Of a stretch of 64,000 nt of DNA, positions 1,107 to 34,399 are shown in pieces (position 1 is the stretch's first letter; every line of letters begins with the position of its first letter). This stretch comes from Candidatus Portnoybacteria bacterium RBG_13_40_8 (GTDB taxonomy: Bacteria > Patescibacteriota > Minisyncoccia > RBG-13-40-8-A), in the NCBI GenBank assembly GCA_001819435.1, contig MHMT01000003.1, positions 5,797 to 69,796 of the forward strand, written 5' to 3'. The notes beneath the pieces were generated by a model, which had not been told where the DNA came from, made no database searches, and was given only the letters and a program-made list of their open reading frames with translations. A program made the translations under genes and the position numbers.

Positions 1107-2177
1107 ATGAAAATTTGCTACATTCTTCCCGAATATAATCAAAATACGGATTCGCATTTTTATCACCATTATGAACGCCTGGAAAAACTTTCCGATAGAT
1201 TGGATGTTTTTTTAATTGCCGAAAAAGGCAGCCATACAAAAGGAAAAATCTTAAACATGAAGCGATTTTATATTCAAAAATTTAAATTTCTACCCTTTAG
1301 ATTTTTGGAAAACTTTTTTATAATTTTGCGGGCCAGGATGCTTGGCTATAAGAAATTTTATACTCATATTTCCTATATTAGTGCTATTAATGCCGCGATT
1401 ATTTCCAGGTTATTTGGCGGGACATCTTATTATTGGAATTGTGCGATGAATTGGTTATTTAAACAAAGAACATTATCTGGTTGGGGATACAAATTGAGCA
1501 TGAAATTGTCCCATTATCTAGTAACCGGAAGCGAAGAAATGAAAAAGGGATACGCTGAACATTATAATTTGTCTTTGAATAAAATTAAGGTTTTGCCGAA
1601 TTGGATTAACCTTAATAGATTTAAAGTTAAAGAACAAATCCCGAAAGTTAAAAACACTTTATTGTTTGTTCATTGGTTGTCAAAAAGGAAAGGAGCAGAT
1701 ATGCTGGTCCCAATCATGAATAATTTAAAATTTAAAATTAAAAATTTAAAATTAATGGTCATCGGTGAGGGACCCTATAAAAACAAATTGATAGACGAGA
1801 TAAAAGACAATGGATTGGAAAAACAAATAAATGTGTTGGGAATGGTGCCCAATAAAGAAATAGCAGATTATTATAATCGAACCGATGTCTTAATCATGCC
1901 TTCAATGGAAGAAGGATTCCCTAGGGTTTTATTGGAAGCAATGGCCTCCGGTATTCCTTATGTTGCTTCTGACGTTGGTGCGGTAAGAGAAATATCTCCG
2001 GAGATCGCCCAAAGATTTTTGGTTAAGGCGGGGGATACGGAAATGTTTGCCCATAAGATAGAAAATCTGATTTTAGACGAAGAGTTGTACCTTAATTTTA
2101 GAAAAGACGGGCTCGAAAAAGTTAAAGAATTTTCTTTGGATAACGCAATTAACAAATTTATTGAATTTTTTGTATGA
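1107..2177 (+). CDS. GT4-family glycosyltransferase
   Basis: C-terminal EEGFPRVLLEAMASGIPYVASDVGA matches the GT4 retaining-GT signature. Stop overlaps the next start (ATGA). Confidence 0.7.
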   Translation: MKICYILPEYNQNTDSHFYHHYERLEKLSDRLDVFLIAEKGSHTKGKILNMKRFYIQKFKFLPFRFLENFFIILRARMLGYKKFYTHISYISAINAAIISRLFGGTSYYWNCAMNWLFKQRTLSGWGYKLSMKLSHYLVTGSEEMKKGYAEHYNLSLNKIKVLPNWINLNRFKVKEQIPKVKNTLLFVHWLSKRKGADMLVPIMNNLKFKIKNLKLMVIGEGPYKNKLIDEIKDNGLEKQINVLGMVPNKEIADYYNRTDVLIMPSMEEGFPRVLLEAMASGIPYVASDVGAVREISPEIAQRFLVKAGDTEMFAHKIENLILDEELYLNFRKDGLEKVKEFSLDNAINKFIEFFV

Positions 2178-3595
2178 AAATCATACTTACAACCTCGCCG
2201 AGAGCTGAAGGAGACGTAGAGAGAAAGGGTTTGCCCTTTTTAGGCATCGGCTATATTGCTGGTTATGTGGAAAAATTCAGTCATCATCAGATTGAGATTT
2301 TCGATGCCCATACTTACGGATTGAACGCTTCTCGGGCAGCAGAAAAAATATTAGAGAGAAAACCGGACGTGGTTGGGATTCACTCGATTACCGATAATAG
2401 ATTTAAAGCCATAGCCCTGGCAAAAGAACTAAAAAAAAGAAATAAAAATGTTATTGTATTGATGGGTGGTCCGCATTTTTCTCTGACCGCGAAAAATGCC
2501 CTAGAGATTGTTCCGGAAATAGATTTTATAATCAAAGGAGAAGGAGAAAAATCGGTTGTCCAATTTCTCAATATTTTGGAAAATAAAGGCGATATTTCCG
2601 AGGTTTCGGGATTGGCTTACAGAACAAAAAGCGGCGAAATTATGGAAAAGCCTTTAACCGATTTGATAATGAATCTCGATGAACTTCCAATGCCCGCCTG
2701 GCACCTGTTTGATTTAAAGGAATATAATAAGCCCATAGATGGTACAAATGTTCGTTCTATAGGCGTTTTAAGCGCCAGGGGATGTCCAAATGTGTGCGTT
2801 TACTGTGCTAATGCTAGATCAGTATTAAGATTAAGAAGCCCGAAAAATTTTGTTGACGAAGTTGAATATTTGTACAAGACATATGGCTATAAGGGTTTTG
2901 ATTTTTGGGATGATACTTTGACCATGGTTAACATTCATGTGGTTGAAATTTGTAAGAAAATTATAGAAAGAAAACTGGATATTGTCTGGTATGCCCGAGC
3001 CAGAGTAAATACGGTTGATAAAAAATTATTAGAGTTAATGAGAAAAGCTGGGTGCATCAGAATTAGTTTTGGCGTTGAGTCGGGAAGTCCGAGAATTTTA
3101 AAAATCATCAAGAAAAATATCACTATTGATCAGGTCAAAAATGCGGTTAGATGGTCCTCCGAAGCGGGCATGGCCGTGATGACTAATTTTATGGTCAACT
3201 TACCAGACGAAACACTTGATGATTTGAAACAGACAATCGACTTAATGAAATGGCTTAGACAAATTAAAAATTCTTATCCTGCCTACGGTTTTACGGTTAT
3301 TTATCCGGGCACAGAATTGGAATTAATGGCAAAAGAAAAAGGATTAATGCCCAAGGATTTTTCCTGGAACAGTCCCTATGAGTCTCCGAAATACAAGGTA
3401 ACCGGTACCGACCCTTCCTTATTTTATATGGAATGGCCGGGCGCCGAACTGGAAAAAATTAAAGCAATAATGACAAAAGAATTGGGAATCAGGGGCAACA
3501 TAATGAAAAAAGGATTTAATAAATTGATAAAAATAAGGTCTATCAGAGAATTAAAAGAATTACTCAGAGCGGGAGTAAATTATTTTAAAAAATGA
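2174..3595 (+). CDS. B12-binding-domain radical SAM enzyme (class B rSAM)
   Basis: N-terminal Rossmann-like B12-binding region (VVGIHSITDN...VLMGGPHFS). Radical-SAM cysteine triad GCPNVCVYC. Also FGVESGS motif. Confidence 0.75.
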   Translation: MKIILTTSPRAEGDVERKGLPFLGIGYIAGYVEKFSHHQIEIFDAHTYGLNASRAAEKILERKPDVVGIHSITDNRFKAIALAKELKKRNKNVIVLMGGPHFSLTAKNALEIVPEIDFIIKGEGEKSVVQFLNILENKGDISEVSGLAYRTKSGEIMEKPLTDLIMNLDELPMPAWHLFDLKEYNKPIDGTNVRSIGVLSARGCPNVCVYCANARSVLRLRSPKNFVDEVEYLYKTYGYKGFDFWDDTLTMVNIHVVEICKKIIERKLDIVWYARARVNTVDKKLLELMRKAGCIRISFGVESGSPRILKIIKKNITIDQVKNAVRWSSEAGMAVMTNFMVNLPDETLDDLKQTIDLMKWLRQIKNSYPAYGFTVIYPGTELELMAKEKGLMPKDFSWNSPYESPKYKVTGTDPSLFYMEWPGAELEKIKAIMTKELGIRGNIMKKGFNKLIKIRSIRELKELLRAGVNYFKK

Positions 3596-4728
3596 AAATT
3601 ATTTATATTGCCAATATTCGAATACCGACTGAAATGGCTCACGGTCTTCAGGTGATGAAAATGTGCGAAGCTTTTTCAAAACATGATAACAAACTGGAAT
3701 TGGTCGTTCCTTGGCGTTTTGGAATTTCCGATTTAATCAAAAAAGACCCATTCGAATATTACCAAGTTGATAAAAATTTTAAAATTAAGAGAATTTTTTG
3801 TTTTGACTTAACCCCGCTGAATAGGTTTTTGGGTCCGATTTCGTTTTTAATTCAGGCTATTTCTTTTGCCTTTTTTGCATCCATCTATTTACTGTTTAAA
3901 AAGTCGGATATTATTTATTCTCGCGACAGATTCAGTTTGTTTTTCATAGCTTTTTTAAAACAAAACATTGTTTCGGAGGTTCATCAACTGCATAGAACTT
4001 TATTCACCTTTTTGTTGAAGAGAGTAAAGAAAATTATTGTTATTACTCAGGGCCTAAAACAATCACTAATAAACAAGGGGATTGGAGAGGAAAAAATTTT
4101 AGTGGCGCCAGACGGGATAGAATTAAAAGATTTCGAGATTAATACCAGCAAAGAAGAATGTAGAAAAAATTTAGGCTTGCCCCGAAACAAAAAAATAATT
4201 CTTTATACTGGCCATCTTTATAAGTGGAAGGGAGTTGAAACCCTGGCTTTGTCTTCTAAATTTTTAGACCCTAGCGCATTGATAGTTATTGTTGGGGGGA
4301 TAAAGTGGTATTTGTCCAGTTTTAAGAAATTTGTTAAAAAAAATAATCTGGAAAAATTACTCGTTTTGGGCCACAAGGAGTATAGTCAAATTCCGTTTTA
4401 TTTAAAAGCGGCTGATTGTTTGATTTTGACCGGAACCCAAAATTACGAGACGTCAAAGAGTTACACTTCACCAATGAAAATGTTTGAATATATGGCCTCT
4501 AATCGGCCGATTGTTGCTTCGGAACTACCGTCATTTAAAGAAATTTTAAATGAGAATAACTGTATTTTTGTTGAACCAGATAATCTCGAATCAATGGCCA
4601 TCGGTATCCAAAAAGCATTGAATGATTCTGTTTTATCCGAAAGCATTTCCAATCAAGCATATCAAGATGTCCAAAAATATAGTTGGAATGATCGTGCGAA
4701 AGCAATTTTAGAATTCATTAAGACTTAA
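3592..4728 (+). CDS. GT4-family glycosyltransferase
   Basis: Translationally coupled to the upstream gene. C-terminal FEYMASNRPIVASELPSFKEIL is a GT4-like nucleotide-sugar binding region. Confidence 0.6.
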   Translation: MKIIYIANIRIPTEMAHGLQVMKMCEAFSKHDNKLELVVPWRFGISDLIKKDPFEYYQVDKNFKIKRIFCFDLTPLNRFLGPISFLIQAISFAFFASIYLLFKKSDIIYSRDRFSLFFIAFLKQNIVSEVHQLHRTLFTFLLKRVKKIIVITQGLKQSLINKGIGEEKILVAPDGIELKDFEINTSKEECRKNLGLPRNKKIILYTGHLYKWKGVETLALSSKFLDPSALIVIVGGIKWYLSSFKKFVKKNNLEKLLVLGHKEYSQIPFYLKAADCLILTGTQNYETSKSYTSPMKMFEYMASNRPIVASELPSFKEILNENNCIFVEPDNLESMAIGIQKALNDSVLSESISNQAYQDVQKYSWNDRAKAILEFIKT

Positions 4729-4782: not shown

Positions 4783-6582
4783 ATGTGTGGAATAAATGGA
4801 TTTTCCGCCCTGGGCGGATCGGCCTCGGGCCGAAATAAAGAATTGATTGAAAGAATGAATAAAAAAATCCAGCATCGGGGGCCGGATGATGAAGGGTTTT
4901 ATTTAGATAATTATATTTCGTTGGGACATCGACGACTTTCAATTATTGATTTATCCGAAAAGGGACGACAACCGATGTTCAATGAAGACAAATCGCTCGT
5001 CCTGATTTTTAATGGTGAGATTTACAATTTTCAGGAGTTACGCAAGGAATTGGAAAATAAAGGTCATAAATTTTGTTCTAAAAGTGACAGCGAAGTTATT
5101 CTTCATCTTTATGAAGAACACAAAGAGGATTGCCCAAAATTTTTAAATGGAATATTTGCTTTTGCGGTCTGGGATAAGCGGAAAAAGGAACTGTTTTTGG
5201 CACGAGACAGAATCGGTGTTAAGCCCCTATATTATTATTTCAAAGATAATAAATTCATCTTTTCGTCTGAAATTAAGGCTATTTTAGAGCACGACATTAA
5301 GCGAGAAATTGACCTAGAAGCATTTAATCATTATTTTAGACTAATGTACGTCCCGGCGCCGTTAACGATGTTTAAAGGCATTTATAAGCTCCCACAGGCA
5401 CATTATTTGAGGTTGCGGGGCGAACAGATAGAAATCAATAGATATTGGAATATTCAAGATTTCAAGGAAATAAACTCTAAACAAGAAATTATTGACAAAA
5501 TTCAAGATTTAATGAGAAAATCAGTCCAAGGTCAGCTTTTGTCAGATAGGCCGGTTGGAGTGTTTTTGAGCGGTGGCATTGATTCAACTTCTGTTTTGGG
5601 AATTGTTAAAGAATTGACGCAAGGTAAAATTAAAACATTCTCGGTGGGTTTTGACATAGAAGATCCTAATAATAAATTCAATGCTGATCTAAAAATAGCC
5701 CGAGAAACAAGCAAATTTTACAATACCGAACATCATGAGCTTATAATTAAAAGTGAAGATATTTTAAATAATTTGGAAAAAGTAATTTATTATTTGGATG
5801 AACCGATTGCCGAGCCCACGCAAACTGCGACCTTTTTGCTTTCGGAAATGGCAAAAAAAGAAGTAGCGGTAGTTTTGGGCGGAGACGGGGGAGATGAATT
5901 ATTCGGCGGATATAAAAGATATTATTATAGTTATTTTTTAGATAAGTATAAATTTATAAGATTTTTTCCATTTTTAAAAACAAAAGTTTATTTTAAATTT
6001 ATGTCGCAAAAAGAGAAAGAAGTCGGTAAGATTTTAAATAAGGGCATAAACAACAAAAAAATAACTCAGCAATATTTTAAAAGAAACTATTTCAAAAATA
6101 GTAAATCAAAATATACAAATCAGTTTATGTTAACAGATTTAAAAACCTGGCTTGCGGACGAATCATTAATGCGTTCTGATAAAATGGCGATGGCTAATGG
6201 TTTAGAGGAGCGAGTTCCTATTTTAGACCATCAATTAGTAGAATTATCCGTAAAAATACCCAGCAGGTATAAAATGTTGAACAAGGATCAGGGCAAGGCG
6301 ATTTTTATTGAGGCAATGAAAAAATATTTGCCAGAACACGTACTGAGATCAGAGAGAAAAAAGGTTTGGATGACTCCAGCCTCGCAATGGTTAAGGGGGA
6401 ATCTAAATCAAAAAGCAAGGGAAATTCTATCTTCGGATTATTTCCTGGAAAATAAAAAATATTTTAATTTCGACGGCGTTCAAAAAATGTTTAATGATCA
6501 TATTGAAAAAAGAAAATATAACCTTAATTTGATTTGGGCTCTAATTACTTTTCAAATCTGGTCCAAAAATACTCACAGATGA
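4783..6582 (+). CDS. asparagine synthase (glutamine-hydrolysing) family amidotransferase
   Basis: N-terminal MCGI nucleophile (Ntn-GATase class II) and the SGGIDS PP-loop. In glycan loci this family amidates uronic acids (WbpS-like). Confidence 0.8.
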   Translation: MCGINGFSALGGSASGRNKELIERMNKKIQHRGPDDEGFYLDNYISLGHRRLSIIDLSEKGRQPMFNEDKSLVLIFNGEIYNFQELRKELENKGHKFCSKSDSEVILHLYEEHKEDCPKFLNGIFAFAVWDKRKKELFLARDRIGVKPLYYYFKDNKFIFSSEIKAILEHDIKREIDLEAFNHYFRLMYVPAPLTMFKGIYKLPQAHYLRLRGEQIEINRYWNIQDFKEINSKQEIIDKIQDLMRKSVQGQLLSDRPVGVFLSGGIDSTSVLGIVKELTQGKIKTFSVGFDIEDPNNKFNADLKIARETSKFYNTEHHELIIKSEDILNNLEKVIYYLDEPIAEPTQTATFLLSEMAKKEVAVVLGGDGGDELFGGYKRYYYSYFLDKYKFIRFFPFLKTKVYFKFMSQKEKEVGKILNKGINNKKITQQYFKRNYFKNSKSKYTNQFMLTDLKTWLADESLMRSDKMAMANGLEERVPILDHQLVELSVKIPSRYKMLNKDQGKAIFIEAMKKYLPEHVLRSERKKVWMTPASQWLRGNLNQKAREILSSDYFLENKKYFNFDGVQKMFNDHIEKRKYNLNLIWALITFQIWSKNTHR

Positions 6583-7250
6583 AAATACTTCCTAAAATTT
6601 TAGAAAAAACAGGATTAGATTCCAAGATTACCAGACGACATCTGGATGATTTTATTAAAAATCACCGAAGTAACGGTCTAACCCTGGATATTGGTTGTGG
6701 AAATTCTCCTTATGCCGATTATTTTCCAAATAGAATTGGATTAGACACGGCAAAGAGAGAAAAAGTTGATATTGTGGCCAGTGTTTATAAACTGCCCTTT
6801 CCTGATGAAAAATTTGATAATATTTTATGCACAGAAGTTTTAGAGCACTTACATTCTCCCAGGGAAGCTATCGAAGAAATGGCGCGGGTTTTAAAAAAGG
6901 GAGGAATTTTAATATTATCCACCAGGTTTTTATTTCCTCTTCACGATATTCCGGATGATTATTATAGATTTACCAAATACGGCTTGAGATACCTATTCAG
7001 AAATTGGGAAATTTTGGAGTTGAAGGAAGAAGCGAAAACATTAGAAACTATTGCCGTTTTGACGCAAAGGATCGGTTATCAATGCAGAGGCCCAATTTTA
7101 AAGCCATTAAAACTATTAATATTCGGTATAGCAAAAATCATTCCATTATTTTCTTTTTTGATTAAAAAGGAGTATGGAGATATAAGTAAAACAAAATTAG
7201 AGAAAAATATAATGACCTCTGGTTATTATTTAGTCGCTAAAAAGAAATGA
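6579..7250 (+). CDS. class I SAM-dependent methyltransferase
   Basis: Motif LDIGCGNSPY plus EVLEHL. Start chosen at the ATGA overlap with the asnB-like stop (MKILPK...). Confidence 0.65.
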   Translation: MKILPKILEKTGLDSKITRRHLDDFIKNHRSNGLTLDIGCGNSPYADYFPNRIGLDTAKREKVDIVASVYKLPFPDEKFDNILCTEVLEHLHSPREAIEEMARVLKKGGILILSTRFLFPLHDIPDDYYRFTKYGLRYLFRNWEILELKEEAKTLETIAVLTQRIGYQCRGPILKPLKLLIFGIAKIIPLFSFLIKKEYGDISKTKLEKNIMTSGYYLVAKKK

Positions 7251-7387: not shown

Positions 7388-8908
7388 TTAAGAAAATTTG
7401 AGAACCTTGTTTTTTAGGAATAAACGGAATCGATTCAGCTTTATTAATAGACGGAGTAAAAATCGACTAAAAATATTTTCCTCATAGCAGACCTGAAATA
7501 GTGGATAAAGTATTTCGGAGTAATGTAAGTAAAAATAGCTCATTTTCCTAATGCCATTCAATTCTTTTTGACTTATTTGAGGCATTTTTAAAATCGTTTT
7601 TGACATATCACTTCGCGCAGGTTTGATTTCTTCTTCAGATGCATAACCTTCTTTGACGGCCGTATCTCCCAATGGCGTGCCTCGATAAGGGAAAAACATT
7701 GAGATATTGGCAAGAGAAGGCCTTGCCTTTTTTAAGAGACGGAAGGTATCAAAAATCATCTCTTTCGTTTCGTAGGGCATCCCCATCATGTTAAGTGCTG
7801 CGACTCTGATTCCTTCTTCTTTCAGGATTCTTACCTTTTCGATATAGGTCTCGTCTGTATAGTCCCTTTTGAGTATGTTTTTCCTGAACTCGTAATTTCC
7901 CGATTCGAGAGCCATCGAGATGCTTGCACAGTTCATTTTCTTTAATAATTTAGCCTTTTCTCTAGTCACAGTATGGGGATGAGCATGGGAAGTAAATGGC
8001 ACATTTACTTCTTTTTGGTAAAGTTCTGACAGTCGGGCAAAATCATCAACATTTCTTAGGAGCATGTCTTCAGAAAATATCTTAAAAAATTTCAGGTCAT
8101 AGGTCTTTGTTAGAAATTTCATCTCTTCGACAAATCTTTCGGGAGAGAAAAATCTAACCCTTCCTATGGGGTATAGTTCATTAAGCACCGAGTTTGCGCA
8201 GTAAGGACATCGCCGTGGACACCCTCTGATATCTTGGACATCGCCACTTTTAATAATTTTTCCTTCAAAGGGTCGTAAAAACTGCCTTGGATCATAGATG
8301 GAATAGTCTAAAAATGGCAGTTTATTGATATCTTTTAGCGGTCTTACGGGGTTCTTGTGTACAATGTCATTCTTTTTTATCCATAAATTTTGGATGTCCG
8401 TTCGCGTGATATTACTACCTGAGATGGCATCGACAAATTCTAGGATTGCTTCTTCACCTTCGCCAACACAGAGTGCGTCAATACAATCTTCCGCAATTAC
8501 CTCATCTGGTAAAGTCGTTGCATGAATTCCCCCCATGATAATGGGAATGTCGTAATTATCCTTGGCAATCTTGAGAAAGTCGATAGTGTGAGAATACATG
8601 TCTGACATGCAGCTTGCAGCAATAAGATCTGGGCGCTCTTTTTTAATCAGGTTCAGAAAGACTGATTTGGCATTGATGCTTTTATCTCTCACAAGGTTGT
8701 ATTTTCCCCAATCAACCTTTTTATACTGCATGACCGAATCCGAGACTTCACCGTCTAGGGGAAAGCCGAGGTCCATGAATGTGGTGTCAAAATAGACCAC
8801 TTCGTGACCTTTCGACTTAAGGATAGCCGACAATAATGAGGTGGCAAGGGGCTTGGCACCTGCCGATGACCCCCCAATCGATGTGAGTAATACTTTTTTC
8901 ATAATCAT
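7388..8908 (-). CDS. B12-binding-domain radical SAM enzyme
   Basis: CPRRCPYC radical-SAM motif with an N-terminal B12-binding-like domain. Close paralog of the enzyme at 32822-34399. Confidence 0.75.
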   Translation of the reverse strand: MIMKKVLLTSIGGSSAGAKPLATSLLSAILKSKGHEVVYFDTTFMDLGFPLDGEVSDSVMQYKKVDWGKYNLVRDKSINAKSVFLNLIKKERPDLIAASCMSDMYSHTIDFLKIAKDNYDIPIIMGGIHATTLPDEVIAEDCIDALCVGEGEEAILEFVDAISGSNITRTDIQNLWIKKNDIVHKNPVRPLKDINKLPFLDYSIYDPRQFLRPFEGKIIKSGDVQDIRGCPRRCPYCANSVLNELYPIGRVRFFSPERFVEEMKFLTKTYDLKFFKIFSEDMLLRNVDDFARLSELYQKEVNVPFTSHAHPHTVTREKAKLLKKMNCASISMALESGNYEFRKNILKRDYTDETYIEKVRILKEEGIRVAALNMMGMPYETKEMIFDTFRLLKKARPSLANISMFFPYRGTPLGDTAVKEGYASEEEIKPARSDMSKTILKMPQISQKELNGIRKMSYFYLHYSEILYPLFQVCYEENIFSRFLLRLLIKLNRFRLFLKNKVLKFS

Positions 8909-9004
8909 AGATTAACAATTTATATTCAAAGGGTCAATATAATTGAAGCTTAAAAAGATAAAGGGTATAATAATTATTGAGTTTCAGAAGAAAGAAAAAA
9001 TAAC

Positions 9005-9136
9005 ATGAAAAAGCTATCTATTATCATTCCATTATTTTCTTTTTTGATTAAAAAGGAGTATGGAGATATAAATAAAACAAAATTAGAGAAAAATATAATG
9101 ACCTCAGTTTACTATTTAGTCGCTAAAAAGAGATGA
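9005..9136 (+). pseudogene. 43-codon remnant of a methyltransferase C-terminus
   Basis: IIPLFSFLIKKEYGDINKTKLEKNIMTSVYYLVAKKR is ~90% identical to the C-terminus of the methyltransferase at 6579-7250. Lies within the duplicated segment. Confidence 0.55.
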
Positions 9137-9205
9137 ATAAAAGCAAGGAAAATAAAAAAAATCAAAATCTGTTATTTTGGTTTCTACGAACCCGGGTTCT
9201 CTAGA
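9023..9205 (+). repeat. copy B of the duplicated gene-junction segment
   Basis: Direct repeat of 7137-7300. Together the two copies bracket the minus-strand radical-SAM gene at 7388-8908. Confidence 0.8.
9133..9204 (+). pseudogene. frameshifted remnant of a glycosyltransferase N-terminus
   Basis: ATGA overlap with the methyltransferase remnant. An alternate frame encodes KICYFGFYEPGFSRNEVYIKGLRENG, homologous to the N-terminus of the GT at 12253. Confidence 0.5.
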
Positions 9206-9268
9206 AACGAAGTATACATTAAGGGCTTGAGAGAAAATGGATAGGAAATATATAAAATAAATTTTTAT

Positions 9269-23488: not shown

Positions 23489-23500
23489 ATACGTTCTTAT

Positions 23501-25330: not shown

Positions 25331-26693
25331 AAAAGCTCTTTATTAATCTGTTGGCATTATTCATATCTTTTGTCGTGTGCATAAAATGATCAGTTATTAA
25401 TTCTTTATTTGCTTCGTATAATAATTTATAAAATTTTTCTTTCGGAATATCGGTGAAGTTGACGGTTAACAAATCCGAATTCTTGAACTTATTGAAGAAA
25501 TCTTCTGGTCCGGACAATAAACCTCTGTCTATTGCTTCGTAATATAGGTCGCTTCCGGGATAAGGAGTTACGGGTCTAATTGTTCTGATTTGATCGTATA
25601 AATTATATTTTTTGATTAGTTTTACATTATTCTTCAAGGATTCTTCGGTATCTCCTTTATTGCCCCAAATAAAATTTAATCCGAGTCCCACTCCCGCTTT
25701 GTTTGTGATCTCTGCGGCCATTATATTTTGTTCAACTCTAGTGTTTTTATTCATCAAATCCAACACCCTTTGGTCTGAAGATTCCATTCCAAAATTAATA
25801 AATTGACAGCCGGATTCTTTTAAGCTGTTAACGATTTCCTCGTCAAAAATATCTACCCTTGCATTACATGAAAATTTGATTTTAAGATTATTTTTTTTTA
25901 AAGCGTCCCGAAATTCAAAAATCCTCTTTTTTGAAAAAACGAATAATTCATCACCCATGAGAAAATAATTGACACCATATTTACTGTTTAAAAGCAGAAT
26001 TTCTTTTATGACATTTTTTACGCTTCGAAACCGTATTCCTTTTTCCATCCTGTAGCAAAAATTACATCTGTTAATACATCCTCTGCCAGTTAGAATGTCT
26101 AACGTTTTATCATCTTTGGTTCCCCTGAATAGTTTTAGGCAGGTAGTATATTTATCCATTGGGAATAGCGACCAGTCTGGAAAAGGAATGGAATCTAAAT
26201 CTCTGATAGGTTCTCTTCTTTCATTAATTATTATCTTTCCATTTTTACGATAAGCAATGCCTTTTACCTTAGAAAGATCCGAACCATTTATTTTACATTT
26301 TAACAAATCAACAATGGTTTCTTCTGCCTCTCCTATTGCAATAATATCTGCTTTAGTTTCTTTCAGCACATATCCGGGTATAGGAGATGGTCCGGGGCCG
26401 CCCAAAACTAACCAGGCATTTTTTTTGTATTTATTTATTGTGTTGCAGAGTCCAAGCACAGTTTCCTTGAATCTTGCCGCCAAAAAACCAACGCCAATCA
26501 AATCGTAGTCTTCATTTTTCAAAAAAAGATTAGCCAGTTCTTCATTTGAATAATGGAAAACATCTTGACAACATATCCCTACATTAAATCCTTCTTTTTT
26601 AAGCACGGCAGCCATATACGCATATCCCAGTGGTAAATAGTTGTCTTCTTGATATATGTCGTGAACAATTAATAATACCTTTCCTTCTCGCAT
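25269..26693 (-). CDS. B12-binding-domain radical SAM enzyme (candidate Fom3-like C-methyltransferase)
   Basis: GRGCINRCNFCY motif, FGMESS motif, and an N-terminal B12-like domain. Immediately adjacent to the phosphonate genes. Confidence 0.7.
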   Translation of the reverse strand: MREGKVLLIVHDIYQEDNYLPLGYAYMAAVLKKEGFNVGICCQDVFHYSNEELANLFLKNEDYDLIGVGFLAARFKETVLGLCNTINKYKKNAWLVLGGPGPSPIPGYVLKETKADIIAIGEAEETIVDLLKCKINGSDLSKVKGIAYRKNGKIIINERREPIRDLDSIPFPDWSLFPMDKYTTCLKLFRGTKDDKTLDILTGRGCINRCNFCYRMEKGIRFRSVKNVIKEILLLNSKYGVNYFLMGDELFVFSKKRIFEFRDALKKNNLKIKFSCNARVDIFDEEIVNSLKESGCQFINFGMESSDQRVLDLMNKNTRVEQNIMAAEITNKAGVGLGLNFIWGNKGDTEESLKNNVKLIKKYNLYDQIRTIRPVTPYPGSDLYYEAIDRGLLSGPEDFFNKFKNSDLLTVNFTDIPKEKFYKLLYEANKELITDHFMHTTKDMNNANRLIKSFYDLYFKEKINFRGARHYVKK

Positions 26694-26732: not shown

Positions 26733-27896
26733 TTAATAAATCTTTTCTAATAATTTTCTTAAAATTTTCTTTGTTACAAAACGAGGATTATTAGCCACTT
26801 TATTTGAAGTAAGGCCATGTTTAATTATTGTTTCAACATCAGTAATCCCGACCTTACTTAATGAAGTTTCTAATCCGATTGATTTCATAACGCCATTGAT
26901 TTTATTACAGGCTTCATTAACAGTATTGCAACCGAGATTTTTGACAACTTCCATAATTTTCTTTTTTACAAATTCCGGACCTCTTTTATCATTACAGTCC
27001 TTACCCGTCACGTCATAGTTGTATTTTAAAAACATTGATAAGGTTAAAGCGCAGGCATGTCCGTGAGGAATATTAAAAAAGGCAGTCATTGGATAAGAGA
27101 CAGAATGTACGGCCGTAGTAGCGGTCTGACTGAAGGCTTGACCGGTTTCAATAGTAGCTAGCATCATTTGTTCACGATAAAATAATTCTTTTGGTTTTTT
27201 GACTGCGTTTTCTAAATTATTAATAGCTAATGACATGCCTTGAGCTGCATGAATATCAGAAAATGGAGTTGAATGAATTGACCAATAAGCCTCTGTAGCT
27301 TGAGATAGAACATCCAGTCCTGTACAGGCCGTGAGGAAAGGGGGCATACTTAAAGTTAATCTCGGATCACATATGGCCGCCAAAGGAAACATCAATGGAG
27401 AACTAAGGGAGTATTTTATTTTATTTTCTCCCCAAATTGTTGCCCAAGGAGTAACTTCGCTGCCAGTTCCTGCTGTTGTGGGAATTGCTATAAAAGAAAT
27501 TCCTTTTTTATTTAATTTTCTTTTTTTTGTAAGAAAATCAATCAAGGTCCCCTTATTATTAGCAAGTATTGCTGCAGATTTTGCTGTATCTAAAACACTA
27601 CCTCCCCCTATAGCAATAATTAAATCAGTTCCGAAGTCTCTAATTAAATGTCTTACATTTTCTATTTGGGTTACATTTGGTTTTGGGGGAATTTTACTAA
27701 AAACTTTGATTTTTATTTTTGGAAAAGAGTCTTTTACCTTTTTAAATGTTTTGTCTTTCAAAACATGTTTACCTACAACTAAATAAACCCTTTCCCCTTT
27801 TGTTTCTAAAATATCGGGTAGGTATTTTAAAATTCCTGAACCAAAATATATTTTTGTGGGAAGATAATATTTATTAAATTTTTTTAATTTGAGCAC
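26733..27896 (-). CDS. iron-containing alcohol dehydrogenase (candidate phosphonoacetaldehyde reductase, FomC/PhpC-like)
   Basis: GGGSVLDTAK signature of group III Fe-ADHs. Gene context. Confidence 0.7.
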   Translation of the reverse strand: MLKLKKFNKYYLPTKIYFGSGILKYLPDILETKGERVYLVVGKHVLKDKTFKKVKDSFPKIKIKVFSKIPPKPNVTQIENVRHLIRDFGTDLIIAIGGGSVLDTAKSAAILANNKGTLIDFLTKKRKLNKKGISFIAIPTTAGTGSEVTPWATIWGENKIKYSLSSPLMFPLAAICDPRLTLSMPPFLTACTGLDVLSQATEAYWSIHSTPFSDIHAAQGMSLAINNLENAVKKPKELFYREQMMLATIETGQAFSQTATTAVHSVSYPMTAFFNIPHGHACALTLSMFLKYNYDVTGKDCNDKRGPEFVKKKIMEVVKNLGCNTVNEACNKINGVMKSIGLETSLSKVGITDVETIIKHGLTSNKVANNPRFVTKKILRKLLEKIY

Positions 27897-27906: not shown

Positions 27907-29034
27907 CTATTTATTTTGAAGAAATTTCATAAATGCGATTTTGTTTTCTTGGGGTGTTTTGGTCGGTCTTCCTAAATTCTTTCTTGAGCCTCTTTTTATT
28001 TTTACAATCAGCATACTAGGACATTTTTGAAATTTTATTGTTTTAACAAAATTAACTAATTCTTTTTGCGTCGTTGCAATTTTAGCGCTTTTATATCCGC
28101 AAGCTAATGCAATTCTACTGAAATCAGCAGAATTAGAAACAGTTTTTTGGCCGCCGGTTGAATCGTAAGTATTATTGTCGAAAATTATATGAAAGAGATT
28201 CTTGGGCAAGAAATGACCTATGGTAGCCAATGTGCCCATTTTCATTAAGACAGAGCCGTCGCCATCAAAAATAAAAATTTTTTTTCTGGGCTTGGTCAAG
28301 GCAATGCCCAGGGCAATACCAGCAGAACAGCCCATTGAGCCAACTACATAAAAATCAGTACGATGGTTTTGTTTTTTTATTTCTCTGCATTCAAATAATT
28401 CTCTTGAGGTTTTGCCGGTTGTAGAGATTATTGCTTCATCACCTTTTAGATTAGCAAGTATGATCTTAATGGCTTCTTCTCTTGTTAATGAATAAATGTT
28501 TTTTTCTTCTGCCTTAGATTGGCAGGATTCTATTGTTTCTTTTTTGACGATGATAGCGTAGGGTGAGCCGTTTTTTTTCAAGTATAGTTTGGCTTTTTCA
28601 ATTTCTTTTGCTGCCTTTACCTGATCTGGGGGAAGAAAGCTAAAGGGGATGCTTAAGGTTTTTAGCAATTTTAAAGTGATTCTGCCCATTTTAATGTGTT
28701 GCGGTTCGTCTTTTTTCCCTGGTTCGCCACGCCAGGAAATTAAAAGCAAAGCCGGAATACCATAAATAGCTTTATCCAATAATGAGGTTAGGGGATTGAT
28801 GGAATTTCCCAAGCCGGAATTTTGCATATAAACCATCGGAATTTTTTTGGTAGCTAAATAATAACCAGAAGCAATGGCGCACGCTTCACCTTCGCTGGTA
28901 GCAGGAACATGATTAAGTTTGCCAGTATCATTTATATAAATCAAAAAATCCTTAAATATACTGCAAGGAACTCCCGTAACGAAAGTTAAATCTTTCTTTA
29001 TTAATAAACTGATTAATTCATTGTTTTTAAGCAT
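27907..29034 (-). CDS. ppd: phosphonopyruvate decarboxylase (thiamine-diphosphate dependent)
   Basis: TPP-enzyme N-terminal and C-terminal halves with a GDGS Mg/TPP-binding motif. About 375 aa, typical for Ppd. Directly downstream of pepM. Confidence 0.75.
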   Translation of the reverse strand: MLKNNELISLLIKKDLTFVTGVPCSIFKDFLIYINDTGKLNHVPATSEGEACAIASGYYLATKKIPMVYMQNSGLGNSINPLTSLLDKAIYGIPALLLISWRGEPGKKDEPQHIKMGRITLKLLKTLSIPFSFLPPDQVKAAKEIEKAKLYLKKNGSPYAIIVKKETIESCQSKAEEKNIYSLTREEAIKIILANLKGDEAIISTTGKTSRELFECREIKKQNHRTDFYVVGSMGCSAGIALGIALTKPRKKIFIFDGDGSVLMKMGTLATIGHFLPKNLFHIIFDNNTYDSTGGQKTVSNSADFSRIALACGYKSAKIATTQKELVNFVKTIKFQKCPSMLIVKIKRGSRKNLGRPTKTPQENKIAFMKFLQNK

Positions 29035-29035
29035 A

Positions 29036-30382
29036 TTATTCTATGGTTGGAATTAGTTCTAGAATTTCTTTAATAGACAGACAAAACTTATCTGCTTCAT
29101 GGGCTCTATTGTGTTTTAATATTAATTTTGCTGTTTTTACCATAGCAGGATAAGCGCTCCTTAACAGCTGATTTGCATATATTACAATTCTGACTCCTGC
29201 TTTGATTAATTCTTTTTCCGTTATTTGGTTGTATGTTGAAGGCACAACCACAAGAGGAACTTTATATTTAAATTTCTTATATTCTTTGCAAAATTCGAGT
29301 ATTTCCTTCGGGTCTTTTTCTTTACTATGTATCATTATGCCGTCAGCCCCTGCATTTATGTAGGCTTTTGCTCGTTTAAGGGCATCTTTTAGCCCTGCTT
29401 TTAAAATCAAGCTCTCAATTCTAGCTATAATCATAAAATCATCTGTCACTTGAGCTCTTTTACCCGCAGAAATTTTATTACAAAAACCCTTTATAGTATC
29501 TTGGGCTTGTTTAACGCCTGTTCCAAAAAGAGAATTTCTTTTAGCGCCGATTTTATCTTCTATAATAACGGCGGAAACACCAAGCCTTTCAAGAGATTTA
29601 ACCGTAAACATAAAATGCTCAGGCAGTCCTCCGCTGTCTGCGTCAACAATCATTGGCTTGGTTGTTACCTCTAATATTTGTTCAATTGTTTGGATTCTGG
29701 ATGTAATGTCTACTGCGGCTATATCTGGCTTGCCTTTTGATATTGAATCAGTTAAACTGCTTTCCCACATACCATCGAATTCACGAACTTTTCCGTTTTT
29801 ATTGATCTTTGTTTTTTCAACTATGAGTCCGGTTAGTCCATTATGAACTTCCATAATTCTCACTAATGGCTTAAGCTCCAATAACCTCCTAAGCATTTTT
29901 AATCTGTAAGCAGGAGTAACCCCTACTGCAACTACAGAACTAATAAGTTGTGTTGATGATATTCCTGGAACAAATTTGCGTTCAACTAATTTACCATGCC
30001 ATTCTTTAAGCGCTTGAATAACTCTTTTTCTTGTTTCTCGTTGAATACCTGTTTTCCAATCATCTCCGTGAACAACATAATCTGGCTTGATTTTTCTCAA
30101 ATTCGGAACATAATCTAGGGTTGTCTGGGCTACTATATTCTTTACTCCTGCAATATTCTCCACTATTTTTTTTCTTTGCTCATATGTCAAAAACGGCACC
30201 CTTTTATAACTAGCTATGGCTTTATCTGTTAGTAAGCCAACCACTACATCTCCTAATTCTTTTGCTTTTATTATGGTATTTATATGCTCCGTATGAATAA
30301 GGTCAGCGCACATTCCTATATATACTATCTTTGGTTTTTTTTGTTTATGTTTCATATTACTTATTTTTTTACTTATTTTCAA
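29036..30382 (-). CDS. pepM: bifunctional cytidylyltransferase / phosphoenolpyruvate phosphomutase (Fom1-like)
   Basis: N-terminal domain: [11 protein letters not shown] is a cytidylyltransferase H-x-x-H-type motif. C-terminal domain: [16 protein letters not shown] is the PEP-mutase EDK(x5)NS signature. Confidence 0.8.
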
Positions 30383-30942
30383 AAGATTTCTTTATGAATC
30401 ATGTCCTTTAGTCTTCTTTTTGGAACATGTAAAATGCCTTTTTTATCAAGCCAGTATTTTATATCTTTTTTAAATTTATCCTCAACAGATTTCTGTTTGG
30501 GATAGCCGAGAGCTATTGCCAATTCAATCATGTAATCTTTTGGAATATTTAAATATTTGATCAACTTGTCTCTGTTTAGCGAACCAATTATACAGCTTGC
30601 TATTCCTTTCTCTAGTGCAGTTAATAATATGTTTTCTATCGCTAAACCCACATCATATTTAGCATTAGTACTTATTTTAGTGTTAGAGATTATTAAAATA
30701 TAAGCAGTGGGCCTTTCTCCTGTTTTTGGAGCTCCATTTTTCAAATAACCTGCCCAATTGGTGCATTCAAAAACTCGGTCAAGATTCTTGGTTATCAAAA
30801 TATATTCTAAGGGTTGAAGATTGGCAGAGCTTGGTGCAAGTCTGGCCGTATTTATGCATGAAAGAATGTCAGATTTTTTAATTTCTTTTTGAGAAAATTT
30901 TCTTATCGTCCTTCTTTTTAGAATTAATTTATATGTATTCAT
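30379..30942 (-). CDS. nitroreductase-family flavoprotein
   Basis: N-terminal RRTIRKF...APSSANLQP matches the nitroreductase fold signature. Confidence 0.6.
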
Positions 30943-30943
30943 T

Positions 30944-31663
30944 TTAATCTGTGGTTAATTTTTCTTTTATACCGCTTCCCAGGGATTTTTTTAATTTTTT
31001 TAATGTTTTTACAAGATTATCTACATTATCTATAATTATTGCATGTTCGTCATCGGGAAATTTTTCTTGTGAATTATCTTTTACGTAAAAAAAGATATCC
31101 GATGGCTCAAATGCTACCGACAGATAGAGTATATTGTGTTCTGAACAATGCAATCCAAAAGCTATTTTTTTGTTTGTAAGTCTTCTGAGTCTGTCAATGG
31201 CTTTTAGATTGGTATCTTCTATTTTTCGTGATAACTGAGTATGAATAAATTTTATATTTTTTAATTTTTTACTCATTTTAATTATTTCTTTTTCACTTGA
31301 GATGCCGGTAGATACAAAAATAGGCTTATTTGTTTTCTGTAGTTTGCTTAGAAGGGCATCATCTAAAATAGAAGTACTCAAAGATTTCCAGAAATCAGCC
31401 CCGGCCGAATTAAGAAAAGAAATCATTTTTTTATCCGTAATCGCAAAGCCTATTAACTTGTTGTTTTTGTGAACAAAATCTATCGCATTTTTATAAAAAT
31501 TTTTGCTAAGTGGCCCTCCCCATTTTTTTATTTTGTCATAATACGTAGGTTCTACAACTTGAAAAGTAATCGCATCAATATCTGTACTAATCAATTTCTT
31601 AAGCATTTTGAATGCCCTCGTTTCACTACCTTTATAATTTTTACCTATTTCCGAAATAAACAT
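30944..31663 (-). CDS. short NeuB-like (TIM-barrel only) protein lacking the catalytic motif and SAF domain
   Basis: ISEIGKNYKGS...AITFQ aligns to the NeuB N-terminus, but the N-H-N motif is absent and the protein is only 239 aa. Confidence 0.4.
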   Translation of the reverse strand: MFISEIGKNYKGSETRAFKMLKKLISTDIDAITFQVVEPTYYDKIKKWGGPLSKNFYKNAIDFVHKNNKLIGFAITDKKMISFLNSAGADFWKSLSTSILDDALLSKLQKTNKPIFVSTGISSEKEIIKMSKKLKNIKFIHTQLSRKIEDTNLKAIDRLRRLTNKKIAFGLHCSEHNILYLSVAFEPSDIFFYVKDNSQEKFPDDEHAIIIDNVDNLVKTLKKLKKSLGSGIKEKLTTD

Positions 31664-31690
31664 TTTATTTTTCTAATATATTTTAAGTTT

Positions 31691-32812
31691 TTACTGAACT
31701 TCTTTTTTTAATCTCCAAACCCCATTTCTTTTTTCCAGAATTTCTTTATTGGCAAACTTGTCTGCTATTGCCCAAAACTTTTCTTCTGGATACTCAATAA
31801 AGTCAAGAAAATCTTTTAACATCTTTCTGTCTAGTTTATAATCTTCTTCATTCACCAATTTCACTGCTTCCTCTCTGGTTAGTCTGCCTTCTCTTATCAA
31901 GACGCTGCTGGTTGCCGTGGTGTAGCAAAAACCGAACTTGAGAAACTTAAACCAGGCATCAGTAAGGTATCCTACTGTGTCAATCTGATTATATTGTTCT
32001 ATGTAGCCTTCTCTTTTCCATTCACCAGTATCATCGAGCGTCTTAAACCCCTTACTTCTGGCAAACTCCATGTGTTTATATTGGCTCCACGGAACAAAAT
32101 AACTTAAATAAATTGGGTCTAATTTGGCTCTTTTTATTTCTTCTGCCGAAGGATAGATACAAGGATTAAAGTCTTTCATAGAGAGAGATGGATCTTCTTT
32201 TAGCCAAACACTCCAATCTATTGGCTTAATAACATCATTGTTGATCTGTTCAAGGGCGCTATATGTCTCTTTGTCTCCTAACGTTCCGCCGTATTCATAG
32301 CTAGTATTCTCGCCATAAACAACTAAAGGTATGCCGAGTTTAATAGCCATTTGAATAGGATAAGCATAAATAGCAAGATCAAAATACCATCCTGGTTTAC
32401 CAATTTTCTCTAACCCCATTCGAAACATTTTCTTACATACCTTTGGGTTTAACGACATTATATGGGCATCTACTCCAAACTTTTGTAAAAGATTACTCCA
32501 GTTTTGCTTGCCGGTCTTGGTCCAACTAAAATTATCAATATTTATCAAAAGCGGATTCATTCCTAACTTCTCTTTTAAGATATAGGTTTGATAATAGCTA
32601 TCTTTTCCAGCGCTAACAGTATTAATACAATCATAATAATTACCATTTGAGCCACGGTATTTATCTGCCAATTTTTCCAATTCTTGCCATCGTTTATTCC
32701 AGTCAGTTTTGGCCTTGGTTTCATGATGTCGGCACGGATAACAAACTCCTTCATCATCGAATTTTATGCCAGGCCTAGTGTCTGGCATGACGCATTTTTT
32801 ACAATATCTCAT
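31691..32812 (-). CDS. N-acetyl-sugar amidotransferase (PP-loop ATPase, WbuX/PseA-like)
   Basis: N-terminal CxxC pairs, SAGKDS PP-loop, and similarity to the family that adds acetamidino/amide groups to nonulosonic or uronic sugars. Confidence 0.6.
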   Translation of the reverse strand: MRYCKKCVMPDTRPGIKFDDEGVCYPCRHHETKAKTDWNKRWQELEKLADKYRGSNGNYYDCINTVSAGKDSYYQTYILKEKLGMNPLLINIDNFSWTKTGKQNWSNLLQKFGVDAHIMSLNPKVCKKMFRMGLEKIGKPGWYFDLAIYAYPIQMAIKLGIPLVVYGENTSYEYGGTLGDKETYSALEQINNDVIKPIDWSVWLKEDPSLSMKDFNPCIYPSAEEIKRAKLDPIYLSYFVPWSQYKHMEFARSKGFKTLDDTGEWKREGYIEQYNQIDTVGYLTDAWFKFLKFGFCYTTATSSVLIREGRLTREEAVKLVNEEDYKLDRKMLKDFLDFIEYPEEKFWAIADKFANKEILEKRNGVWRLKKEVQ

Positions 32813-32821
32813 ATTTTTATT

Positions 32822-34399
32822 TTAATTGTTAATTTTTTTATTATATATATTTTCTAAAGCCCTTATATATTTCTTTGTTTTTCCGTTATCGTTCCAAACG
32901 CCATCGTGAGCAAATACACATTCTTCATGTATTTTATATAATTCTTCTGTTAATTTTTTTCCGATCTCGTCATCCTTTTCCGATCGTTCTATATATTTAT
33001 AAAAAAGACGGGGCATTTTTATATACAATACAAATCGTTCCCGAAGAGCTATAAGCTCTTTTTGGGGAATATCGGGGAAAGTCAAGGCCGGTCTGTCATT
33101 TTGGAATACTGCATCGGAGTTTTCGTCAAAGAAGCCATTTTTTACGGCAATCTCTCTTAGCTCAGTTTTTTCTAAAGGAAAGAAGAATCCCGCATTCGGA
33201 TATCGAACCTCTGCCTTTCTATTCAATTCGATAGTTTCCATAACGGTTTTTCTATTTTCAAATGGAACACCCAGCATATTGAAAGCAGAAGTGCGAATGC
33301 CGGCGTCATTAAATAATTTAGTTGCCTCTATGATTTCTTCTTCGGTTTCAATCCTTTTGAACATTTCCTTTCTTAATTTATGATTTCCTGTTTCAATGCC
33401 TAGGCTTACACTGACACAGTTCATTTTTTTAAGAAGTTCTACTTTTTCTCGGGTTACATTTCGGGCATTAGCCATAATAACAAACGGAACTCCGACTTCT
33501 TTTTTATATTTATCAGCCAATTCATTGAAATAATCCAGTGATTTGAGACAAAAATCTTCATCGTGAAATTTAAAGAATTCCAAATCCCATTTATCAACCA
33601 GATATTTTAATTCCTTAATAATTCTATCTATGTTGTAATATCTTAAGAAAGGACCGGCTCCTGGCCCATAAAGTTTACGGTAAGCGGCATTAATGCAATA
33701 TGTGCATTGATTTGGACAGCCCCAGTATATCATGTGGTCGCCGCCTCTATATATTTTGCCGTCAAATGGTTTAAGGAAATGACGTTTGTCAAAAATTGAC
33801 CAATCAAAAAATGGCAGAGAATCCAGGTTCTGAAAATATGGTCGCAAGGGATTTTTTTTAATCCCCCCATTATCATCCTTATATGCGATATTATTAATTG
33901 TCTTAGGATTACAATTTTTAGCAATACATTCAACAAACTCTGGCATAAATTCTATTCCCTCGCCAACGCAAGCAAAGTCTATATGATTACAATCAAGAAT
34001 CTTTTCGGGTACCATTGTTGCTGCTTTGCCTCCCCATATAACTATGGTGTGGTTATTCCATTCCTTGACAATCCTTGAAATCTCGAAACCAATGTATATC
34101 TCATCTGACAAAGCAGAAATTCCGATTATATCGGGATTAAATTCGTTTAATTTTTTCAACAATTCTTCTTTTAAATTAACTTTTTTCTTGGCCACATCGT
34201 ATTTACTGAAATCAACATCTTTGAAAATTTTTATCTTACTACGGACTTGAGTATTGTTTTGAAAGTTAAAATCTATAAAAGTGGTATCGAATAAATCAAC
34301 CTCGTGTCCTTTGTTTTTTAAGATACCGAATAATAAAGATAGGCTCATTGGTTTAAAGCCAAATTGATCTTTATTGGGCCATACAAATAATATTTTCAT
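32822..34399 (-). CDS. B12-binding-domain radical SAM enzyme
   Basis: WGCPNQCTYC motif and GIETGN motif. Paralog of the enzyme at 7388. Confidence 0.75.
   Translation of the reverse strand: MKILFVWPNKDQFGFKPMSLSLLFGILKNKGHEVDLFDTTFIDFNFQNNTQVRSKIKIFKDVDFSKYDVAKKKVNLKEELLKKLNEFNPDIIGISALSDEIYIGFEISRIVKEWNNHTIVIWGGKAATMVPEKILDCNHIDFACVGEGIEFMPEFVECIAKNCNPKTINNIAYKDDNGGIKKNPLRPYFQNLDSLPFFDWSIFDKRHFLKPFDGKIYRGGDHMIYWGCPNQCTYCINAAYRKLYGPGAGPFLRYYNIDRIIKELKYLVDKWDLEFFKFHDEDFCLKSLDYFNELADKYKKEVGVPFVIMANARNVTREKVELLKKMNCVSVSLGIETGNHKLRKEMFKRIETEEEIIEATKLFNDAGIRTSAFNMLGVPFENRKTVMETIELNRKAEVRYPNAGFFFPLEKTELREIAVKNGFFDENSDAVFQNDRPALTFPDIPQKELIALRERFVLYIKMPRLFYKYIERSEKDDEIGKKLTEELYKIHEECVFAHDGVWNDNGKTKKYIRALENIYNKKINN

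Follow-up and report, generated by a model that had tools for sequence, protein, structure and literature searches.

What is known of class-B radical S-adenosylmethionine (rSAM) enzymes comes mostly from pathways for antibiotics, cofactors, lipids and peptides. Here we analyze a window of 64,000 nucleotides (the whole stretch of DNA under study, from contig MHMT01000003.1, which is 79.4 kb long; positions are counted from its first letter) of Candidatus Portnoybacteria bacterium RBG_13_40_8, a groundwater bacterium of the candidate phyla radiation (CPR, Patescibacteria) with a small genome. The window carries six rSAM genes, here named R1 to R6 in order of position, whose products are annotated in databases for this metagenome-assembled genome (MAG) as hypothetical or generic proteins only. 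The best overall explanation, to which we assign a probability of about 0.6, is that the window holds a supercluster of approximately 45 kb for a complex cell-surface glycoconjugate, with six class-B-type rSAM enzymes embedded in it.

The closest described counterparts come from several pathways. In moenomycin biosynthesis, the class-B enzyme MoeK5 is partnered by the AsnB-like amidotransferases MoeF5 and MoeH5. MoeK5 methylates a lipid-linked uronic-acid sugar, GenK introduces a methyl group at C-6' of a ring derived from glucosamine, and the substrate of Fom3 is CMP-2-hydroxyethylphosphonate (CMP-HEP) (PMC9204698). Together with GenD1 and Fms7, these enzymes provide class-B precedents on sugar or phosphonate substrates, most of them C-methyltransferases (PMC9204698, PMC12931638).

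By description, the locus resembles each of these systems in part. GenK, GenD1 and Fms7 have the same architecture of a B12 domain and an rSAM core and act on amino-sugar carbons, but they belong to actinomycete secondary metabolism, whereas the enzymes considered here stand in a primary surface-glycan and nonulosonic-acid context in CPR bacteria, DPANN archaea and methanogens. The moenomycin trio of glycosyltransferase, AsnB and rSAM genes matches a block formed by R1, two family 4 glycosyltransferase (GT4) genes and an AsnB gene; moenomycin, however, is an antibiotic phosphoglycolipid, and only a TviC-like epimerase and a fragment of a dehydrogenase suggest a uronic-acid substrate here. Canonical NeuC/NeuB/NeuA, legionaminic (Leg) and pseudaminic (Pse) acid clusters share with the window NeuC, NeuB and CMP-synthetase genes, present here in two sets, and an amidotransferase of the WbuX/PseA type, but differ in that the cassette, both here and in dozens of other genomes, has one to three B12-type rSAM genes as integral members. 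A full-text literature search returned no description of a B12-type rSAM enzyme in nonulosonic-acid or CPR glycan pathways, in keeping with an earlier note on this DNA whose author knew of no described system for a surface glycan so heavily tailored by rSAM enzymes. The superfamily is known; the families, their conserved surface-sugar placement across both prokaryotic domains and the fusion with NeuC reported below appear to be undescribed.

Domain architecture and relatedness of the six enzymes

The six open reading frames (ORFs) lie exactly where the earlier note had placed them: R1 at 2174-3595 (+), R2 at 7388-8908 (-), R3 at 9269-10651 (+), R4 at 10661-12106 (+), R5 at 25269-26693 (-) and R6 at 32822-34399 (-). 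In a Pfam scan, all six matched the Radical_SAM domain PF04055 with 74-101 bits (R1, 91; R2, 88.5; R3, 101; R4, 101; R5, 74; R6, 86). All six also matched the B12-binding domain PF02310, five of them with 42-79 bits and thus above its gathering score of 32.1 bits (R1, 62.8; R2, 56.6; R4, 79.4; R5, 42.3; R6, 47.0), while R3, whose N-terminal domain is divergent, fell short at 23.1 bits. Each enzyme contains exactly one CxxxCxxC motif, located between residues 195 and 230 (CPNVCVYC at residue 204 in R1), and the motif's cysteines are invariant across an alignment of 46 sequences. The earlier reading of an N-terminal B12-type Rossmann domain followed by a CxxxCxxC core in all six proteins is therefore upheld by Pfam, save for the sub-threshold PF02310 match of R3. 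According to Pfam/NCBIfam, fold and profile comparisons, the proteins are neither activases nor DUF4070-only proteins, assignments that the note had named as speaking against it. We regard the class-B-type domain architecture of the six as nearly certain.

In pairwise comparison, R2 and R6 were 37% identical over their full length, R2 being the sole clear paralogue of R6, while all other pairs were 21-30% identical (R3/R4, 29%; R1/R3, 29.5%; R3/R5, 30.1%). The six had been thought to include two pairs of close paralogues. That claim is only half right: R3/R4 do not form such a pair, being no nearer to each other than R1 is to R3 or R3 to R5, and R2/R6, at 37%, are not recent paralogues either. 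Identity to orthologues elsewhere was 66-87% for R5 (in more than 120 clusters), 57-89% for R1, 50-88% for R6 and 40-76% for R3; relatives of R4 include a 73% identical protein in locus L040 and a 71% identical paralogue upstream of the window. The latter was found in a sibling MAG (locus L073), whose other proteins are 100% identical to those of the window. There, a seventh class-B rSAM gene (L073:9282-10694) lies just upstream of what is window position 1, with another GT4 gene after it, and the locus therefore runs past the 5' end of the window. This gene is the only recent duplicate found, outside the window; its 90.6% identical orthologue in L040 sits between GT4 genes. R2 was seen at the same position in L073, and its context is known from this population alone. 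Judging from these sequence identities, the six are old, separately maintained families rather than local duplicates, and would act as distinct tailoring enzymes.

Comparable concentrations of such genes were found elsewhere. Among loci with R3 orthologues, stretches of 21 kb contained six (L062, L063, L066) or four (L061, L067) class-B rSAM genes, and in the first three, which are metagenome loci, these are interleaved with GT4 and methyltransferase genes and packed more densely than in the window. Glycan loci with several rSAM genes are therefore found repeatedly and are not confined to this genome, and the occurrence of six class-B rSAM genes within 32 kb is not due to chance.

R5 and R6 in nonulosonic-acid cassettes

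A genome-collection scan for R5 recovered 34 loci at 41-75% identity, of which the 27 with at least 8 kb of flanking sequence, from 27 species, were used for counting neighbors. The bacterial loci come from Nealson-, Staskawicz-, Falkow- and Saccharibacteria, Omnitrophota, Planctomycetes, Thermodesulfobacteriota, Dehalococcoidales and Nitrospirae, and the archaeal loci from Woese-, Pace- and Nanoarchaeota (DPANN), Methanoregula and Methanosarcinales. NeuB and CMP-nonulosonate synthetase genes were each present in 21 of the 27 loci; 11 loci had NeuC, and 10 encoded a WbuX-like amidotransferase. De novo clustering of the neighbors added a DegT aminotransferase, a dehydratase of the PglF/PseB type and HisH/HisF-like partners, so that the set corresponds to the classical legionaminic/pseudaminic toolkit. 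A CMP-synthetase gene directly adjoins R5 in 7 of 33 loci.

The cassette of the window itself recurs in locus L043 (9.5 kb), which encodes orthologues of R5 (87% identity) and R6 (88%) in the order epimerase, CMP-synthetase, NeuB, NeuC, R6, two SPASM rSAM proteins and R5. This arrangement equals that of the window, the pair of SPASM rSAM genes standing where the window has a block of phosphonate genes. In the window, R6 lies 14 nt downstream of NeuC_b, a member of the second of two nonulosonic-acid gene sets. This set (34414-38257, -; Pfam/NCBIfam) comprises NeuC_b (422 bits, cut-off 236), NeuB_b (marginal, with 396.3 bits against a cut-off of 399.65), CMP-synthetase_b and an NAD-dependent epimerase/dehydratase. 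NeuC, a NeuB-type synthase and a PF02348 cytidylyltransferase are all encoded in both sets, and the window thus contains a nonulosonic-acid cluster.

All three R6 contexts sampled (L043, L044 and L045) contain NeuB, NeuC or CMP-synthetase genes. One of them encodes a natural fusion of 919 aa (P0349, L044:2359-5118) between an R6-like B12-rSAM protein and a NeuC-type UDP-GlcNAc 2-epimerase, with a Capsule_synth gene on one side and a CMP-synthetase gene on the other. The methylation of a glucosamine-derived ring by GenK is the type of step that such a pairing of R6 with NeuC would suggest. Another R6-family protein (P0278, 865 aa) is fused to a class-I SAM methyltransferase domain, and the R6 orthologue of an Omnitrophica genome directly follows NeuB. 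R2/R6-like genes likewise abut NeuB in several R5 loci, and in L005 and L006 (approximately 7870-9990) an R2/R6-like rSAM protein fused to a SIS_2 sugar-phosphate-binding domain (705 aa) is encoded between a short NeuB gene and the R5 orthologue.

R5 is, in light of these contexts, a component of a nonulosonic-acid cassette, and the association of R5 and R6 together with nonulosonic-acid genes is very probable. The most informative context of the two enzymes is nonulosonic-acid biosynthesis, not glycosyltransferases.

In L003 and L004 (4746-9678), the R5 orthologue is adjoined by genes for a GmhA-like SIS protein, an HldE-like kinase/adenylyltransferase, an HldD-like epimerase and another B12-rSAM protein of 560 aa. 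This neighborhood hints at heptose intermediates as possible substrates of a NeuB-type condensation.

R1, R3 and R4 in glycosyltransferase arrays

R1 is translationally coupled between two GT4 genes, GT4_a (1107-2177, +) and GT4_b (3592-4728, +); both were identified by Pfam and form a conserved block with R1. GT4_b is followed by an AsnB-type amidotransferase gene (4783-6582, +; TIGR01536, 516 bits, cut-off 267) and a SAM methyltransferase gene (6534-7250, +; Pfam). Orthologues of R1 with 89%, 79% and 57% identity have a GT4 gene immediately upstream and an AsnB gene at most two genes downstream. In all, a GT4 gene before R1 and AsnB within two genes after it were found in L040, L041, L042, L054 and L073, in most of which GT4_b stands between R1 and AsnB. 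The full order GT4-R1-GT4-AsnB is kept in L040 and L042, while the downstream GT4 gene is absent from L041; a methyltransferase gene follows AsnB in L040 and L041. In L040, the block is syntenic at 88-95% identity. Further upstream, the relatives carry additional GT4 genes and genes for a polysaccharide deacetylase, a FemAB-like acetyltransferase and DegT.

Of 12 loci with R3 orthologues, 8 contained GT4 genes and none contained NeuB; the loci often carry many class-B rSAM genes, and some have AsnB and SAM methyltransferase genes. R4 is followed by GT4_c (12253-13371, +; PF00534). Apart from R2, the six enzymes are split in two groups, with R5 and R6 in nonulosonic-acid cassettes and R1, R3 and R4 in GT4 arrays. 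The earlier description of rSAM genes interleaved with glycosyltransferase genes accordingly fits the segment from 1.1 to 13.4 kb, but not R5 and R6, which stand among nonulosonic-acid and phosphonate genes.

Cobalamin dependence

A profile of the R1/R5/R6 family aligned its N-terminal domain with those of OxsB, QCMT, TokK, CysS and TsrM, including the motifs GG.h.P and D..v.GEGE. Against AprD4, the same profile aligned over the core only, the N-terminal domain contributing 0.3 bits. The GG.h.P and GEGE-type motifs, which are common to cobalamin-bound structures, are kept in R1, R2, R4, R5 and R6, the same five enzymes that exceed the PF02310 cut-off. The R5 family also occurs in methanogens according to the genome-collection scan, and methanogens make cobamides.

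Several observations weigh against cobalamin-dependent methylation and must be set beside these results. CPR bacteria as a rule lack cobamide synthesis, the host lineage is not known to produce B12, and neither a B12 riboswitch nor a cobalamin transporter was found in the window. None of the six reached the cut-off of any curated NCBIfam class-B family (BchE, HpnJ, HpnR, BzaD, PhpK, Sden_1168, QCMT, KedN5, TsrM-type, AprD4, ArsL and ladderane rSAM); the best scores were 100-217 bits against cut-offs of 480-580, among them R1 with BchE (217, cut-off 481) and R3 with HpnJ (202, cut-off 578), and no function can therefore be transferred by homology. In R3, the motifs of the N-terminal domain are degenerate (GS-HGS and CEPE). 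The best sequence match in the PDB for R1, R5 and R6 was AprD4 (6FD2), over the core. AlphaFold modeled R5 with a predicted local distance difference test (pLDDT) score of 90, and in Foldseek comparisons the whole chain matched AprD4 and the cobalamin-bound TsrM, OxsB, QCMT, CysS and TokK about equally, which bears out a class-B fold; the highest template modeling (TM) scores, 0.73/0.76, were those for AprD4. AprD4 and cobalamin binders score alike in this comparison, and fold does not distinguish between them. AprD4 dehydrates 1,2-diols of sugars; both it and ArsL fall within the B12-rSAM similarity network but are considered not to bind cobalamin (PMC12931638).

Some or all of the six may, on these grounds, be cobalamin-independent enzymes with a vestigial Rossmann domain that catalyze AprD4-like dehydration or deoxygenation, epimerization, or an HpnJ- or OxsB-like ring contraction of sugars. 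AprD4 has a sugar substrate and falls in the same length class of approximately 455 aa, and R3, with its sub-threshold PF02310 match and degenerate motifs, has HpnJ as its best family match. The likeness to AprD4 is nevertheless limited to the rSAM core, whereas the N-terminal domain of the window's family aligns with cobalamin binders, and scores for the AprD4 family NF033070 were 26-95 bits against a cut-off of 500, placing none of the six in that family. Together with the intact motifs of five enzymes and the presence of these families in cobamide makers, this renders cobalamin independence unlikely, although the alternative retains some weight. Cobalamin use is, as far as the sequences can indicate, likely for five of the six enzymes and doubtful for R3.

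The phosphonate module beside R5

Three genes directly beside R5 form a genuine phosphonate module of the Fom1/Fom2/FomC type. They encode a cytidylyltransferase-phosphoenolpyruvate (PEP) mutase (Ppm) fusion (29036-30382, -; TIGR02320, 402 bits, cut-off 320; PF01467 at residues 25-147), a phosphonopyruvate decarboxylase (Ppd; 27907-29034, -; TIGR03297, 472 bits, cut-off 312) and an iron-dependent alcohol dehydrogenase (Fe-ADH; 26733-27896, -), whose best match was Phn_Fe-ADH with 246 bits, below the cut-off. The ten-residue, Ppm-specific motif EDKxxxxxNS is present in the fusion at residue 275, and the three genes constitute a Ppm-dependent, cytidylyl-activating module. Because the module contains no aminotransferase, 2-hydroxyethylphosphonate rather than aminoethylphosphonate is predicted as the decoration.

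The order of these genes on the minus strand, cytidylyltransferase-PEP mutase, Ppd, Fe-ADH and R5, mirrors fom1-fom2-fomC-fom3, and Fom1 exemplifies the PF01467-Ppm fusion type (Rice et al., PMC6697681). R5 might consequently be a Fom3-type enzyme that methylates CMP-HEP, the substrate of Fom3, to CMP-2-hydroxypropylphosphonate before decoration of the glycan. The linkage to Ppm and Ppd seen in the window is, however, not conserved among R5 orthologues: homologues of Ppm or Ppd occurred in 0 of the 27 R5 loci, in contrast to NeuB and CMP-synthetase in 21, and the three orthologous loci fetched first all lacked Ppm. L043 also lacks the linkage, although its R5 and R6 orthologues are the close ones described above, with SPASM rSAM genes in the module's place; as it keeps the cassette from R6 to R5 minus the phosphonate block, the module appears to be a swapped-in segment. 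We therefore rejected R5 as a Fom3 orthologue on the basis of conserved context and consider a Fom3-type function improbable. No homologue of HppE or FomD was found among the scanned window ORFs. The module more likely supplies CMP-HEP for the glycan, as in Pnt-type pathways (PMC6697681). The earlier suggestion of phosphonate substituents thus gains a real phosphonate pathway within the window and loses the adjoining rSAM enzyme as its Fom3. A parallel with Fom3 may still lie in the chemistry, in that R5 could be a class-B methylase acting on another CMP-activated substrate, CMP-nonulosonic acid.

Gene content and setting of the locus

The glycan locus comprises four successive segments. The first (1.1-13.4 kb), mostly on the plus strand, runs from GT4_a through R1, GT4_b, AsnB, the SAM methyltransferase, R2 (on the opposite strand), R3 and R4 to GT4_c.

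The second segment (13.3-25.3 kb), on the minus strand, begins with GT4_d (13336-14538, -; PF00534) and a TagF/TarF-like glycerophosphotransferase (14535-15830, -; PF04464, 223 bits), whose matches to TarF/TarL remained below cut-off. The first nonulosonic-acid set and export genes follow (15773-25330, -; Pfam), encoding a Capsule_synth-like protein of 515 aa, a methyltransferase, a 2-hydroxyacid dehydrogenase, CMP-synthetase_a, NeuC_a (381 bits, cut-off 236), NeuB_a (261 bits, below cut-off, with a strong PF03102 match), a KpsC/S-like Capsule_synth protein and a fused ABC exporter with best matches to the HepA, MsbA and PglK types. For the 515-aa ORF at 15773, no sequence match was found in Pfam, NCBIfam or the PDB, and its likeness to the Capsule_synth protein consists of a weak stretch of 26% identity.

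In the third segment (25.3-38.3 kb), also on the minus strand, R5 and the phosphonate genes are followed by genes for a nitroreductase-family, a short NeuB-family and a WbuX-type protein (30379-32812, -; Pfam), R6, and the second set with NeuC, NeuB, CMP-synthetase and the epimerase. The nitroreductase-family gene was considered as BluB, an enzyme of lower-ligand synthesis, and rejected, with 46.7 bits against a cut-off of 150 and a match restricted to residues 3-56. The short NeuB-family protein (30944-31663, -; 239 aa) matches the C-terminal two-thirds of the NeuB model with 55-62 bits and has no SAF domain; it would be either a truncated or a divergent aldolase. The WbuX-type N-acetyl sugar amidotransferase (31691-32812, -; TIGR03573, 338 bits, cut-off 203) belongs to a family associated with acetamidino formation. 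In the window it stands without HisH/HisF-like partners, which accompany WbuX in 8-10 R5 loci.

The fourth segment (38.6-45 kb) contains a polyprenyl glycosylphosphotransferase (38630-40042, -; TIGR03025, 383 bits, cut-off 296) and, divergent from this initiating enzyme, a Wzy_C protein (O-antigen ligase/PglL-like) with C-terminal TPR repeats (40078-42309, +; Pfam), which may pass the completed glycan on to an acceptor protein or lipid. Downstream are a nucleotide-sugar dehydrogenase fragment of 336 aa (42318-43328, +), which matches its family model from position 70, lacks the C-terminal domain and may represent a truncated gene or one whose start was called wrongly, and a TviC-like epimerase-GNAT fusion (43379-44953, +; best match TviC, 263 bits, below cut-off).

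Housekeeping genes for SecA, SecDF, a sigma factor, two aminoacyl-tRNA synthetases and FtsQ occupy the 3' third of the window, and the glycan locus is therefore chromosomal. Its G+C content (0.29-0.36 over window positions 1-40000) is lower than that of the housekeeping part (0.35-0.40 at 40000-64000), as would fit a modular locus subject to horizontal exchange. Amid the housekeeping genes lies a gene for a TrwB/TraG-like coupling-protein ATPase with a treble-clef zinc finger (56399-57988, +). Three further plus-strand ORFs, at 44998-45777 (259 aa), 46147-47955 (602 aa) and 55102-56388 (428 aa), had no Pfam match. A search for tRNA or other RNA genes in the window found none.

Discussion

From the architecture of the six enzymes, the distinctness of their families, their conserved neighborhoods and the natural R6-NeuC fusion, we infer a model of the substrates, the transfer of methyl groups, the dependence on cobalamin and the resulting glycan. 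C-methylation of unactivated sugar carbons appears to be the most likely chemistry, although we would put it at no better than even odds. In such a reaction, a 5'-deoxyadenosyl radical would abstract a hydrogen atom and methylcobalamin would donate the methyl group, the cobamide presumably being scavenged from the community.

R6 would modify a UDP-hexosamine or free hexosamine during the NeuC step or an adjacent one, and R5 would act at the stage of the nonulosonic acid or the CMP-nonulosonic acid. R1, R3 and R4 would modify sugars of the nascent glycan between successive GT4 reactions, and amidation of a uronic acid by AsnB probably accompanies the R1 step, by analogy with MoeK5 and MoeF5. 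Separately, the phosphonate module would produce CMP-2-hydroxyethylphosphonate; the TagF-like enzyme could be the transferase that uses this CMP-activated phosphonate and would probably attach it to the glycan. Assembly is predicted to start on polyprenyl phosphate through the glycosylphosphotransferase and to proceed via the ABC exporter to the ligase-like Wzy_C/TPR protein.

It is highly improbable that membrane lipids, peptides or other non-glycan molecules are the substrates and that the genes lie in the glycan locus by co-localization only: there are weak matches to lipid families (rSAM_ladder_B12, 115 bits for R6; HpnJ and HpnR), and B12-rSAM enzymes are reported to modify archaeal lipids, but all of these matches lie far under the cut-offs, no precursor-peptide or lipid-synthesis genes were found among the scanned locus ORFs, and the translational coupling to GT4 genes, the fusion with NeuC and the recurrence of the neighborhoods across phyla argue for roles in sugar pathways.

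A glycan-modifying role also allows a more speculative and rather unlikely extension, namely that the R5 and R6 families lengthen or branch the nonulosonic-acid skeleton at the nucleotide-sugar stage by methylcobalamin-dependent, possibly iterative C-methylation, giving rise to ulosonic acids of higher carbon number. In Magnetospirillum, CMP-activated C10 ulosonic acids were found in a CH2-spaced mass series to which no genes are assigned (bioRxiv 10.64898/2026.04.20.719630). C-methylation of the R5/R6 type would yield such C10 species. Were this extension true, sugars of this kind would be common at the surface of CPR bacteria, DPANN archaea, methanogens and further anaerobes, and symbionts with reduced genomes would need scavenged cobamide to make their coats.

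Our findings reveal distinct and strongly conserved class-B families that are integral to surface-sugar pathways in dozens of uncultivated lineages of both prokaryotic domains. The R6-NeuC fusion and the compact NeuC-R6-NeuB-CMP-synthetase-R5 cassette point to directly testable substrates. If nonulosonic acids or lipid-linked glycans are indeed C-methylated, these enzymes would produce a new class of surface sugars, and the recently seen C10 ulosonic acids of unexplained origin could be accounted for. It would also mean that ultra-small symbionts spend a large share of a genome of approximately 1 Mb, together with scavenged cobamide, on the cell surface, their interface with their hosts.

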